A stretch of DNA of 64,000 nt from contig JBNZDD010013429.1 in NCBI GenBank assembly GCA_050575255.1, positions 129,732-193,731 on the forward strand, given 5' to 3'. Both the position numbers and the translations under genes were made by a program. The notes below the pieces were generated by a model. That model searched no databases. It saw nothing but the letters and a program-made list of their open reading frames with translations, and had not been told where the DNA came from. Source of the stretch: Harriotta raleighana (lineage: Eukaryota). Shown here piece after piece: positions 16,601 through 25,600 of the stretch (position 1 is the first letter of the stretch; the number at the start of each line of letters is the position of its first letter).

Positions 16601-19600
16601 GAAATCCTGCTCCCAGCATTCAAATGCATCTTAGCAGGATGAGCTAATGTTCAGTAAAACTCTCTCCCCTAATCCCTTCACCTTGACCCTCCCTCTACAA
16701 TTTCAAATCCTACCTAAAGACTTTCCTTTCTCCCCCCCCCCAATTTTTGTTGTTTTTGATCATGCTTATAGTCACCTCCCACTCATTCTCCCTGGCTTGG
16801 GATCAGACTCCAGCTCTGTTAAGCACTCCGGGACTCCATCCGGCATGAAGGACACTATATAAATGTTATTGTTAGAAATTTTATCCACAAAATAGCATTT
16901 GATGGCAGAATGCAGAATCTAATCCTTCTGTTTGACGCTCCACCTTTTGCGTTCGAAGGACATCTCAAAGCACTTCACAGGATATACCATAAAGTGTTTT
17001 GACTGTGATTTGGATAGCAAATATGGCAAGTAATTTTCCCACAGCAATAAACTGGCACTGAGTCAATAACCATTTTTATCTGGGAAATTGTTGGCCAAGA
17101 CACTGGCAAAAATTCATCTCTTTTTGAGTCGCATGATTGGATCTTAAACATCTACCTTAACAGGCAGATTAGGCCTTGGTTTAATGTCTCATCTGAATTT
17201 ACAGAAAATCAGCTTTAAAGTTAAGTCGGGAATATGTGAATTTCCCAAACTCAGCTCACTCTGAAATGCTTCATGAAGAGAATAAATCCAGACAAAGTGG
17301 AATTTTCCTCCCCAGTAGTGATCATTTTGAACAATAGCTTTGACAATAATTTGACAACACCAGCCTCAACTTGATTATTGCCCTTATATCTTGCAAACAG
17401 CAAAAATTGTTGCCATTTGCTTAGGTTGCTGTGAGTGAGCAAATGCACCACCGACCGTACCTACAAGATGGCCAAACGTGAGGCAAGCATTGTTTGATTG
17501 CCCAAAGAAAGCATTGCGCTTGTCAGACATCCTTATGTGGGAGTGATTTTGGAAGGAAGAGAAAGTAATGCAAACCTTCCAAGTCTTACCCATAATTTTC
17601 AATGTCAACCTGAGATTCGTCTGCCAAAAAGTAATGTCCCTAATGTTCTTCCATTTGTCCAGCCCAGAGAACAGGATGCTAAAAACAGGAAAAAATTATT
17701 TTGTTTTCATGAGCACAACAAGGAACTCTCACCTGTGTCACCAACAACAGTCCAAAAGAAAATGAGACCATTGCGATCGCTAGGATAAGAAACTCTCGAC
17801 GATTCTTTCCTTCGAATTTTGTTGGAAATAAGTCGATAATCGATGTTGCAAAACACTCAACACCTACAAACTACAAAGGATGAAGGTTAAAAGAAGCATC
17901 TCTTGAACAAATGAATCAAAGTAATGCACTTCAAAGGTGAAGAATAGGAAATAATTCACCCATCATTGCGCACAATGCAATGTTGCTTTATTATTGTAAT
18001 TCTGACCACATGGATTACATATAATAATAGTAATAATAATAATCCTTGAATTTGATATAGTGCTTTTCACATCTTATTGACGTCTCAAAGTGCTTCGCAG
18101 AATATATTGTAAAGTGAATTGACTATATTTGTGAGCTAAATGTGGCAGCCAATTGCTCACAGCAAACAGTCGTGGATTGAAATGACCAATTTTTATTATT
18201 GTGGGTTTTTTGGGAGGGATTATTATATACAAATGTTGCAAAGTCCATCCATTTCTGTGCTGCGACTTTTCATTTTAAAGGTGAATCTGTATATATGGAG
18301 GCAACACTTTTCAGGGGAAGAGACCAATCAGATAGAACCCTACTTTATCCCTTTATCCCATTGTTGAGGCAGTTACCTGACTGTCCAGACCCAGAAGGAT
18401 GATCATGAGGAAGAATAAAAAGGCCCAGAGTTGTGAGAAAGGCATCATGGTAATTGCTTTGGGATATGCAATAAAGACAAGACCAGGACCTATGAAAAAT
18501 ACATCCACAGAGATCAAAAAATGTTCAGCAGAACGCATTTACAGTAAAAATCCGATAATCCGGCACGTTTGGGACCTAGGCGCCGGATTGGCAAATATGA
18601 CGGATTATTGGACGTTACACTTAGGGATGAGAGGATTTGAGTGTGCTGTGCTCTTATCTATGTTACATACCTGTATAGCAAAAACCAGAGCTCTCCCCAT
18701 CCCGGCGGAGCAAGAGGTCTGTCTAAAGAGGCATCGCACCCACCAAATGTTAATTTTTTCAAAAATAAAATTGCGTGCACCTGCGCACTTATTAAACATG
18801 ACATCAGTGACGGGCCCTGAGGAAAATGCTACGAGAAGTGTGAAGGCTCTCTGGGAAGAGATGCGCATAGAGATGCGCATATTGGAAAAGGGCGGACAGT
18901 CGCAGATGCCGGACTATAAGGCATTCCGGATTAACAGGTGCTGGATTAACGGAATTTTATTGGGTTTGTAAATCTCTCTGAAAAGACAGATGTCATTTTT
19001 CCTCATTTCTTTCTACCAACAACCAAACAGTCAGCATCCAACAAAGCAATACTTCGGCTTATTCACTTTGATTTATTCACTTTGGCTTGTTCACATCTGC
19101 TGGAAAGTTTGTACTCTTATAGAACGATTACACACTGTACCTCATTCACGATGTTAGAGATCCGATTTCTCCGGTTAAAAATTTAGGTTACAGCCAGCCT
19201 CCGATTAACCAGATAGTACAGAATATCTCTTTATTTTAGTTCGGAAATAAGGTTACAGCCAGCCTCTATTCCTTATATTAAAAGCAGATTCTTTATTCAG
19301 GTATACTCATAGAGCTGACACTAAAGCATATAAACTAACTAGTCAACACATGACTACAAGTCAACACATGACTTCAAGGCGAACATTATTATCTAGGTTT
19401 CTCTTAATGCAATCTCATACACCAATACTACCCGGCACGCATTCTTCGGGGTTCAGGGGAAATAGTCCTTTCCTCTTCTTTCTCCTCTCATCTTACCTGT
19501 CGTTAAACAGAACAACTGGAACTTATGACCAGTTCCAGTAGTTCTGGACAACAGTGGCAGGCTGGAGATCTCGGCTTGTATGCATGTTCCCCACAGCGCA

Positions 19601-22600
19601 AGCGAGGGGAGCCCGATGATTCCTATTCCCCTGTCACCATCCCAAGTTGTAAGATCCCTGATCCAGACAAATTGGCTAAAAACAACCAGCGTGCTCACAG
19701 GGGACAGCAATACCAGCTGTGGCCAGCTTAAGGTCGGAAGTTATACACCCCTGTACAATATTACCCAATATCCCCCAAGCCTCAACGTTCCGATGTTGAG
19801 GGGGGCCTGGTGTTTTACCCAGACCGGTAATGGAACCCCGATGGGTCACAGCATATGTAACTACACGGTGCCACTAGGGTCCACCGACATAACAGGGGAG
19901 TCAGCTAGCATCTCCCTGAAAGCGACGGGTTGTAAAGTCGCAGACGGTTCAGTCTTAAGTGTGCAAGTAGAACAAGCGAACCTCCGTGGGCCCAACGGTA
20001 CGTACTTCGTCTGCGGTTGGAAGGCGTACCCTTGGCTCCCTTTAAACTGGACCGGCTCATGCTATCTGGCTCATATCCTCCCCAACGTGCATTACCATGC
20101 CCACACCCAAGGACAAGGACCCCAGACCCACGTCCATCGACGTTCCTTGGGCTGGTATGAGAAGCTCTTTGGAGTATTTGTGCCTCCCTATGGGTTGTAT
20201 AGAACCAACCAAGAGTTGGAGGCCCTAGAGGCTGTACTGGAGTCAGTCGCCAATGACACCGCTGAGGCCCTGTTAGACCTCTCTGCTGAGGTAGTGGCCA
20301 TCCGAACCGTCACATTGCAAAACAGGATAGCTCTTGATCTGTTACTAGCCGAAAAAGGGGGCACGTGCGCACTGATTGGCTCAGAGTGCTGCACTTATAT
20401 TCCCGACTCATCCGAAAACATCACAAACCTGGTCCAACACATTCGTACCCAGGTGGGATCTCTCAACCGTGGCGTCCAGCTACCCACCTGGTGGACCAGT
20501 TGGATGTCAGGCTGGGGTTCTTGGTTTTTACATGCCCTCGTGGTCGTCATTGTGTTTTTACTGGTATGTTGTTTAGTGATACAAGTAGTCAAGATGTGCC
20601 TTGCCCGGTGTATTGATACGGTCGTTAAACCGGTCATGTCGACCCATGTGGTTCAGCGACCTGAGCATAACCCGGATAGAGGTTACAAGTTTGTACCCCT
20701 CCTGAAATTGTGATACCTCATGTTTATTCGGTATCAAGGTGGGGACTGTTGTGTTATGAGGGTGAAAGAGCAGCGTGAAAATGTTACCACTAGAATGACC
20801 TCTATCCGAGTAAGGTTGAGACTTGTTATTCGAGAGGAAAAACTGCAAGGAAAGTTCTCTGGGATAAGGGAGAGATAAGAGACCTTGTACATGAAGTACT
20901 GGCTGTTGGATGTAAGGTTATGTCTAGGGGAAAGGTGTAAAAACATTCTATTCTTGGTACGTGAACTCCTCTTGTGCAGACAACGGATTGGAGAAGAGCC
21001 TGTGCCAGCAACCTTAAGAAGGCACGCTTGAGAAAGAAGAGTGTGCTGATACAACAGAAGATTGGATGGAAGAACCGTGTGAAACGGTGTAACGAAAAGA
21101 CAACAGAAGACCTGAGACGAGAAAGGAGACAGGGTAAAGCCCTGCCACGAGTTCTAACCGGGTATTATAACCGCTGAATTATATTACTAAAGTTGTAATC
21201 GTAGTTAACTGTATACTTTGACCAAGTCCGTCCCATATTTGGGAAGCTCAAATAAAGAATCTGCTTTTAATTTTAAGGAATAGAGGCTGGCTGTAACCTT
21301 ATTTCCAAATTAAAATAAAGAGATATCTTGATCTCTAACAACGATTCCTATTGAACCATTGAAGTGAAGTGCTAAAACTGCAGAATACCAAAGTTGAGAA
21401 AAGGAGTTGAGAAAATAAGTCAAAAAGCACTCTTGGGGTAACTCTCAGGTTTGAATTTGAAAAGCTTGCACAGATTTGAGTGACGAAAAAGCTAACTATT
21501 GAGGTTCTGAAAAAGAATAATTTGAAGCACTAAATCTTGATTTAATAATAATTATTTTATTTGACCTAATGTTTTATTATGTCATTGAGACATCTCAAAG
21601 TGCTTTAGAGAATATACTGTAGAGTGAATTCATTATATTTTGTGGGTGAAATGTGGCAGCCAATTGGATACACACACCAATGTCCCACAAACAGTTGTGG
21701 TTTGAGTGACCAATTTTTTTGTTGGGTAATGATGGTGGTGAGTGCTATTACCCCTGAAAAGTGATTCACCAATCGACTAACAGTCGGGTTCCTACTTGTT
21801 GCTAGGTACATGTGGAGTAAGGAAACTTGCCTAAGGTTTCACCCTGTTTCATTGTAGTGAAGATGCAAGATGATGTATTTGAAGGCTGAGAAGTAGCTCA
21901 TTCTGAGTGTGAGAAGCTCCCTGAATGTGGGAATGGAAGAGACTAAATCCAAGTATTCAAGTAGCACCCCGTTATATTGGAGCCTAATTTAATGTATATT
22001 CAACTTGAATTTATATAATTCATTAAAATCTTGAATTATTAAAGATGACAAAATGTCAAAAACGCCGAAGAACAAAAGAGATTCAGAGTGTAAGCAATTG
22101 TTGAGGTCTTTTGATCCACATACTCAGTGTGCTGTCACGGTTACCATATTCTTGCAGGGAAATGGAAAGGCCTACAAGCAGCCTACATGAGTTTACAACA
22201 AAATATAGACTCAGAGCTGCTTGATGCACAGTCAGCTAAACAAGCAGCCTGCAGATTAAAATAACCAGTGGGTCCCAGCAAGGGGAAAAAAACTTGCATT
22301 CGCATCATACAGTGAACAGAGCCACACTTGTATATAAGACAATACTCGTCACTCCTTATGGTCACTAACTATGGCCATCATCTGCTCCACACTGACATGT
22401 ACAGGACTCCTGTGGTCACGGTTGATTTCACATTTCTTTACTAATGTAATATTGTGCTTTTGGATGTTATAGTTCTGTGTGATTATTATATTTGTAATAA
22501 ATATAATTTTATTGATTTGCTCCCATTGTTGTGTAACTTCATAGAATCATAGAAAGTTCCAGCACAGACGGAGGCCATTCGGCCGATCGAGTCTGTGCTG

Positions 22601-25600
22601 ACTCTCTGACAGAGCAATGTCACTTTCATTAACCCCAATCACCAGCTTTCTCCCCATAACCCTGCAAACCTGTCTTCCCCAGATACCTAACCAGTTCTCT
22701 CTTAAAAAGTTGTTGTTGTTTATATGCCAGGAAGCCAAATGTTGCTCGGTGTTAATAAAGGGCTTTTGTTTCAGATTTCCGACATCTGCAGTATTTTACG
22801 TTTTTTTTAATAAAGGGCTGTTGTTTTTAACAAATGTATCCTCGAGTCTCTGTAGTATCCTAGACAAGGAAAGCAGTAAGCACTTTGGAAGTATTTGTCA
22901 ACATCGGAGGTCTACTAGCCTGAGCAGACTCCAATTAGACATTCTGGCTCCTGGAAATTGGAGGTCACTGGGAATACCTGGCTGTGTGTGACTCTGACTT
23001 GGTTGATTTTAACCTTTGAAAAGGGAACTCACACCGACAGAGTTAGAAGAGAAACACTTAGCACAAAACAATAAACATTAAAAAGGTTTGCAAGTACATC
23101 AAGGGATGAGGCCAGCCTGTGATTCAGTTTCCAATCCTTGTGCTTAAATAAATTATAAATGTTATTTAAACAGTTTTAAAAATAAGAGTGCACCCTACCA
23201 GACTCTGCCACTTCAGAGATGGGTATTCCCTGTTCATATGACATGAATCCCAGCACAGAAAACACAGCAATACCAGATACTAAACTTGTTCCGCTGTTCA
23301 AAGCACTCAGAAACAAACAGTCTCTGGGGGGAGGAGAAGAAATCTTATCATTCGGAAAAATAGCTACATGCTGGAGAAAGTTTCAGTCATAAATCATAGA
23401 AACAAAACTGAGTTCTGTTTGAGATGATAGCCTGGGACAACAATGAGTTCTGAACCTGGGTGATTAATGAGATCCAAATCTCTCTCAAGTTGTGCAACAT
23501 ATAGAAGGTATGATATGTGATAGTGAATATAAATGGCAAGTAAATTAATTAGCATAACATTTGAGAATTGAAAGTCATGGAGATGTTTAAGTAATGTATT
23601 ACTTTGAAACCCATAAGATGTGATGTCCTTTGATGAATAATTAACTTTCAGGATTTAATTATACTTTAAAAATAATATTTCATGCATTACATCATTCTAT
23701 TTCTTAACCGAACATGTTTAGAACTTCTCGGCAGAAGGCTGCCAGGATAATGAATAATTATGTACAATGAAGAAGTCAGGATAATGACTAATTTTGTTCA
23801 ATGAACAACAGCAACCTTAGCACTCCAGAGCTTTAGTATTCATCATCTTTACTGTCAAAGGGACATTTCGTCCCATTATTGGGGTATATATTAACTCCCT
23901 GAGCTGAAAGTATGCTGTACTTTCACTTCTGGGAATATGGGTGATAAATCGAGACAACTAATTAGAGATTTGAACTAGTGTGATATACAGCAGATACCAT
24001 CAGTCTCCAGAACAATGATTCAAATTATGCCCATATGATGGGTTGAAAATTCTTTTTGACAGCTGTAAGGATTCAACCTGCTAAAATTCGAAGCATGCAT
24101 ATCAGTACAGTCCATATCAGGACACATTCCCAACGGGGTCAAGCAGTCTCCAACAGATGGGGAACCCTCACTTCACTCCATAGCATTGATTTGAAAGCAC
24201 TGTATTTTAACTAGCTATGTTTTAACTCACTGAAACACCTTCATGGAACACTTATATAAATTGAGCCTGCATCTTAAAGAAGCATTATCGTCTACTTGTT
24301 TGGAGGACAGAGAGACTGGGAATAACACTATACCTGTAGCAGTTATTGTTGTATTTATTGTAGCTTCCCAGGGATGTAAGGGCACCCAGACATACAGCAT
24401 AGGAAAATAAAATCTGAGTACCAGCATCCATCCATACCTGCGGTAAACAAAAAAACCATATGTGATCATATACAACAGTTTGTGCAGGTATACTTTGGTA
24501 GCAATTTGAAATCCACGTCAAAAGGCTCTGAACTAAAATGCTACATGTCTTTCAAGTTCAGTATCATACCGTCAAAGGTATAGACTTAGACAAACAATTA
24601 CATCAAGGTCCCATGCCCCCATTCTTTAGGTGATAAACATCCCATTGAAAAAGAGAAAGGAATTTTTTCCAGTGTTCAAATTCATCCTTTAAAATCAAGA
24701 ATGACCAATAGCAATGCACTAAAGCAAGGATTCCCAATTTGTAGCCTGCAGGCCACATATCTCATTGCAAGACTGAAAAGCCCTAGATTATCCTGACACT
24801 TTTTAATGTGTATTCCACTAATATGAAGAATCATCCTCAAGGCTTTACGTTGCACTGCACTGCCTCCAAGATGAAGAAATTATATTATCCCTTATGTCAG
24901 AGGCAAAGAACCCAGCATATGGCCAGCAACACTTAGCCCAAAGATTTGGTTACCTGAGGATCAGATAGTCTGGACAAGTCAGGATACATGTAGAACTTGA
25001 TTCCCTCGGCAGCACCAGGCAAGGTCAAGCCTCTGATCAGAAGTATGGTCAGCATCACGTACGGGAAGGTAGCGGTGAAATAGACAACCTGCAAAACAAA
25101 ACCATGGAAACGGTATGCTGTGACATTAATGTTTCGCCCTGAGATGGTAGCGCTCTCACCAATAGCAAAGGAAGAGTGCAAATTTCTTGCAGTTAAACGT
25201 CAACAGGATGGAAGCCATACTCTTTGGTTCCCATCAACATCCTCTGTCCTGCAGTTGAGTGCTGGTTGATCTCACATCCCATCCACTGTAGCTCTGGAGG
25301 AGGATGACATTGTTGCAGATTTCATCCTTCACTCTGTATCTACCCATTCAAGTGGACATTCATGTTAATGGAAACATTATTCAAAAAGATAAGTGAAGTT
25401 CTTCAAGTGTCCCGGCCAACAATCCTTCAGGTAAATTTATTGTTGACCATATAGATGGTTGAATGAGTTTACTGGTGGAAAATCACAGCCATATTTTCTG
25501 GCAAACATTGTCACTGAATTTGATAACTTTTACTATAAAGCTATATTTGAGATGTTTTGATCAAATGAAGGACACTAAAAATACAAGTTCTTCTTTCTTT

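Follow-up and report, generated by a model that had tools for sequence, protein, structure and literature searches.

The 64,000-nt window analyzed here (Harriotta raleighana assembly GCA_050575255.1, contig JBNZDD010013429.1, positions 129,732 to 193,731) contains a 2189-bp retroviral insert at 19152–21340, within an intron of an SLC6-family transporter gene. Both outer ends of the insert are exact U5 CA ends that face outward, and they stem from two different lineages of long terminal repeat (LTR), designated LTR-A and LTR-B. The insert begins TGTTAGAGATC, terminates GATCTCTAACA, is flanked on each side by ACGA and contains no N. Its length, end sequences and flanking ACGA pair are exactly as claimed in an earlier note made from the letters alone (the original prediction). 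The host gene was recognized with the profile PF00209, for which 12 matches were obtained among 129 frames scanned. These matches are exon-sized and lie on either side of the insert. Because they stay colinear with the profile across it, no exon has been lost. The features of the locus are as follows.

18490–23198, minus strand: intron of the SLC6-family (PF00209) transporter gene, delimited by exon-sized profile matches on either side of the insert
19148–19151, unstranded: left copy of the target-site duplication, ACGA, 4 bp as is usual in the family
19152–19577, minus strand: 3' 426 bp of LTR-B (distal U3, R and long-type U5) in antisense, identified by genome comparison; its U5 CA end is the left end of the element
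19230–19297, minus strand: two LTR-B AATAAA hexamers (19292–19297 and 19230–19235) in the sense of the host gene
19576–19577, unstranded: 2-bp TT overlap between antisense LTR-B and env, a single match in the assembly
19576–20713, plus strand: 5'-truncated class I-type env, including the membrane anchor (Pfam TLV_coat, E=1.8e-22)
19588–19593, plus strand: 6-bp match between env and the in-register antisense continuation of LTR-B, 10 nt beyond the junction
Near 20135, 20315 and 20366, plus strand: env furin-like site, immunosuppressive domain (ISD) and CX6CC motif, respectively
20736–20746, plus strand: polypurine tract (PPT) and the 2 nt preceding the LTR
20747–21340, plus strand: complete 594-bp LTR-A; its U5 CA end is the right end of the element
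21341–21344, unstranded: right copy of the target-site duplication, ACGA

A search of the element against its own genome divides it in two. The left part, 19152–19577, is LTR-B, and the right part, 19576–21340, holds the 3' part of env, the PPT and LTR-A. LTR-A is identical to solo copy L013 at 592/594 positions, and the env part matches copy L033 at 1165/1171. The left arm is identical to copy L039 over 379/379 positions and to copy L041 over 354/355. Solo LTR-B copies in which both ends were found mostly measure about 870–1010 bp, and relative to five solo copies the left arm lacks 513–537 bp of the 5' U3. The original prediction saw inverted LTR ends, with 19223–19297 about 95% identical to the reverse complement of 21251–21326. 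Recomputation gave 94.7% over 76 columns, and the outward U5 ends are real. The inverted repeat arises because LTR-A and LTR-B have in common about 75 bp of R/U5 and the final 11 bp. The U3 of the left arm is B-type, its U5 is the long form, and within the common stretch the arm departs from LTR-A; therefore the element's own LTR was not its template. The prediction overlooked that two lineages are present. Its statement that only env, a PPT and one LTR remain holds for the PPT and LTR-A, but the left 426 bp are also LTR and env is truncated.

The reading frame of env is open from the junction through to the stop. Compared with the longer stop-to-stop frame of L033, its first 97 codons are missing, and with them a signal-peptide-like hydrophobic stretch. 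A transmembrane subunit with ISD and CX6CC, followed by a PPT and an LTR, is the arrangement by which an endogenous retrovirus (ERV) with class I env is recognized, and it is present here; the motif names are those used in PMC8278194. The antisense LTR-B at 19529–19576 happens to be in frame with env; the resulting stop-to-stop frame is 394 aa long and owes its first 16 codons to the LTR.

A normal provirus has TG...CA termini, a duplication of family length and two direct LTRs. The element has the first two. Self-BLAST found no direct 5' LTR, as the prediction had said. The family's 18-nt primer-binding site (PBS) was also counted absent, since the best candidates in the element have 8 mismatches on the plus strand and 7 on the minus strand. 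Leader, gag and pol pieces of relatives gave only one 16-nt match to the element (E=0.01), in agreement with the reported absence of gag and pol.

Relatives of the element encode RNase H and retroviral-type integrase frames, and their PBS, which sits in the relatives and not in the element, is complementary to tRNA-Ser(AGA). Relatives with reverse transcriptase (RT) and RNase H, integrase and a tRNA PBS are expected of ERV-derived sequence with class I env, and the element has such relatives. The tRNA-Ser PBS and most of U5 are shared by LTR-A and LTR-B genomes, and their leaders are related. The RT motif is YVDD in two sister copies, L084 and L085. The best match of a Pol fragment is an unclassified Xenopus tropicalis protein (54% identity). 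The RT region of one sister copy scored about equally, as a similarity ranking only, against RT/RNase H p80 chains, which we take to be of murine leukemia virus (MLV) type, and Pr125Pol chains, presumably foamy-type. The gamma-type env is held in common with gamma/epsilon-like (class I) ERVs. XtERV-S of Xenopus, as described in PMC8278194, resembles this family in the tRNA-Ser PBS (of the relatives), TGT...ACA LTR ends and a class I-type env with CWIC, ISD and CX6CC. XtERV-S, which has a dUTPase, differs in its 5-bp duplications and YIDD, and membership was rejected on duplication length (4 versus 5 bp) and RT motif (YVDD versus YIDD).

Exactly 4 bp are duplicated around 7/7 complete solo LTR-A copies examined. 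A list of 22 solo LTRs (7 A and 15 B), made up only of copies with matching 4-bp flanks, shows T favored at position 2 and disfavored at position 1. The target pattern of MLV and xenotropic MLV-related virus (XMRV) given in PMC2857682 is similar in all three respects. Under a position-frequency model two unrelated target sites of the family match with P of about 1/139; empirically, 2/462 pairs among the 22 duplications do so. The family looks young, judging from 356 exact U5 ends and from solo LTRs 99–100% identical to those in the window. Several U3 types are combined in it with one U5 and PBS. At four loci (C13657, C13688, C13702 and C4768) U5 ends are repeated exactly 79 bp apart, which suggests a tandem-U5 LTR variant. 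Three U5 ends lie within 462 bp at L075:5380-5975, two followed by a PBS and the last after a 43-nt leader; this copy may be heavily deleted or misassembled.

The original prediction offered two explanations, one of them a non-autonomous env-only family with inverted termini. The clean termini, the duplication and an env open from junction to stop would suit a mobile family of this kind. However, a search of the assembly for the 33-nt junction sequence that tolerated up to 2 mismatches gave 1 match, and the several loci of like architecture with different duplications that the prediction named as support for a mobile family did not appear. Pairs of U5 ends were then considered for 353 listed ends of the 356 exact matches to the U5-end motif, a search that misses diverged ends and ends lying in gaps. 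Within 15 kb the ends form 30 pairs in direct orientation and 1 facing inward; the 1 outward pair is the window element itself. A second outward pair, 34 kb apart (C13655), was rejected as two separate LTR-B-type copies whose outer flanks have no 4-mer in common. The element is thus single-copy in the assembly. It also has no PBS, its env has no N-terminal part, and each arm is simply a fragment of an ordinary LTR type. An env-only mobile family is largely refuted for this assembly and, as an account of the element, extremely improbable. Since there is no PBS and both promoters point outward, the element would not be expected to be copied again. DIRS-like elements integrate by tyrosine recombinase and make no duplication; a DIRS-like origin was rejected because a 4-bp duplication is present and the relatives encode a retroviral-type integrase. 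Membership among miniature inverted-repeat transposable elements was likewise rejected.

The other explanation, a rare aberrant product that integrated as one unit with two outward U5 ends, fits the exact CA ends and the duplication of the family's 4-bp length, which are what a concerted U5-U5 integrant would have. We consider it probable that the element is a single-copy, dead-end aberrant provirus in which integrase inserted the U5 end of an A-type genome together with that of a B-type genome in one concerted reaction. As a U5/U5 dead end it would therefore be the fossil of a rare replication error and not a new mobile family.

The starting point would be A-type and B-type genomes of one young retrovirus family, and the sequence is compatible with two routes from there. 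In the somewhat likelier one, a particle would have contained one A and one B RNA. Nascent minus strands would have stalled, A inside env and B 426 nt in, inside U3. The stalled strands would then have paired through a short, imperfect overlap and served each other as template, yielding DNA with U5 at both ends. The 6-bp match, which is in register and lies 10 nt beyond the junction, agrees with such annealing of strand ends. In the second route, to which we give slightly less weight, a single intasome would have received one U5 end from each of two separate cDNAs, the middle being closed by host end-joining or by a later deletion. Either way integrase would have joined both U5 ends in one concerted reaction and left a normal 4-bp duplication. 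Biochemical integration of two ends from separate molecules gives a normal stagger, as in the element, which is an apparent germline fossil.

The state of the ends bears on a further alternative, in which integrase joined the A U5 end only and the second end resulted from repair by host enzymes, which copied inverted B sequence. There is precedent in section 10 of PMC5041404, which describes aberrant integrants of human immunodeficiency virus (HIV) and avian sarcoma-leukosis virus (ASLV) whose viral end is joined to additional viral sequence in either orientation. In those integrants, however, one end is inserted by host enzymes and often truncated, and the host duplication tends to be far longer. 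The window element has an exact U5 CA as its second end and a canonical duplication of 4 bp. A one-ended origin is very unlikely.

Integration of both genomes followed by host rearrangement has to be considered as well. An A provirus could have landed inside or beside an antisense solo LTR-B, with a deletion taking B-U3 through the 5' part of env. The remainder of B would have been lost by a second deletion between copies of a 4-bp AACA that the U5 end of A shares with the U3 end of the inverted B, or else the ACGA match would be due to chance. Solo LTR-B copies are plentiful, and the junction microhomology is typical of host end-joining. Nesting itself has a precedent at L036:7573-8335, where an A-like 3' LTR directly adjoins the antisense 5' part of an older B-like LTR. 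This arrangement is probably a nested insertion; the other half of the B-like LTR was looked for in L082 and not found there. Against a rearrangement, two precise deletions or a match of about 1/139 are required in very young sequence. All three parts are 99.5–100% identical to their best copies, therefore little time was available for several later deletions. Random placement predicts about 0.0005 (within 2.2 kb) to 0.003 (within 15 kb) outward pairs whose 4-mers match, even if no deletion is demanded. Neither 200-bp flank of the element contains an LTR or provirus remnant, and the host exons are complete with none lost. A rearrangement after integration is therefore unlikely in our judgment, although it is the strongest of the competing accounts.

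If the concerted U5-U5 explanation is correct, A and B genomes would have met in common particles or cells. Three direct-orientation chimeras elsewhere in the assembly, each A at the 5' side and B at the 3' side, bear on this. L034:1897-2980 runs from LTR-A and PBS through a 170-nt leader to a B-type tail, with CCTT on both sides. In L032:3019-3757 a gap separates an A U3 from a B tail, and the copy is flanked by CATT on both sides. L074:826-5339 is built like L034, and its flanks, CTAC and CTAA, match at 3/4 positions. Their shared flanks suggest that A and B genomes recombine prior to integration. L034 and L074 pass from the leader straight into the 3' LTR, as do the HIV-1 asymmetric-LTR proviruses that PMC9278108 attributes to inter-genome plus-strand transfer. 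Those proviruses are likewise defective, and arose by template switching between co-packaged genomes before integrating. Unlike the window element, which is inverted with two U5 ends and two LTR lineages, they have direct LTRs with a U3 and a U5 end (PMC9278108).

Several observations weigh against the concerted U5-U5 explanation. It rests on one case, and the genome scan takes in exact U5 ends only. The 6-bp match at the junction was spotted post hoc; a run as long occurs in 0.7% of random pairings, and a wider 18-nt identity measure was non-significant (9% of the null). For this family ACGA is a somewhat unusual target (P of about 1/578, against a mean of 1/139). L032 contains a 45-N gap, L074 has a large gap between its A and B parts, and the flanks of L074 agree only in part. 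The random-placement estimate may be too low because L036 shows that nesting happens. Finally, reads and contigs from 4/12 listed runs were compared with 17800–22800. No run had half of the sampled words, so they possibly come from a related organism. Among the matches listed, mostly to high-copy repeats, there was no record bridging a junction and no empty-site joint.

A further alternative is that copies from different loci or alleles were joined in assembly. In its favor, none of these repeat-dominated matches confirmed the structure, the assembly is fragmented (13,732 contigs) and many copies of the family contain N gaps. Some solo LTR-B copies occur twice with identical flanks (L083, L090, L091 and L094). 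By contrast, the insert is free of N, and its outer junctions combine exact CA ends with a duplication of family length. The overlap at the middle junction is only 2 bp, probably too short for a repeat-driven misjoin. No second full-length copy, haplotig or paralog of the left flank was found in the assembly, and no empty site there. An assembly artefact is accordingly quite improbable. The paired LTR-B copies at the four loci just named lie 1.5–8.4 kb apart with identical right flanks, which suggests local or assembly duplicates.

Aberrant proviruses are already known. In the literature covered, from which subscription papers and supplements were largely outside, no germline two-lineage U5-U5 provirus with a canonical duplication was found, and the element is in this sense without an earlier report. 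A real structure of this kind would provide natural in vivo evidence both for the acceptance of a U5/U5 pair from different genomes by a retroviral integrase, with normal geometry, and for two LTR lineages of the family having been in common particles or cells. It is conceivable, though doubtful, that co-packaged genomes prime on each other repeatedly during reverse transcription, placing U5 at both DNA ends and integrating faithfully into the germline, so that back-to-back proviruses form a recurring class. Such a class would have escaped LTR finders as well as integration-site assays, since both presuppose a single U3 end and a single U5 end. A cheap screen suggests itself, in which other genomes and integration datasets are searched for U5 pairs that face outward and have a duplication of family length.

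An 830-base run of N occupies window positions 11172–12001, near the last detected SLC6 exon. The biological effect of a single dead-end copy is probably small, and host-sense poly(A) signals in the SLC6 intron could matter locally. The LTR-B hexamers at 19230–19297, on the minus strand and in the sense of the SLC6 gene, may truncate its transcript.

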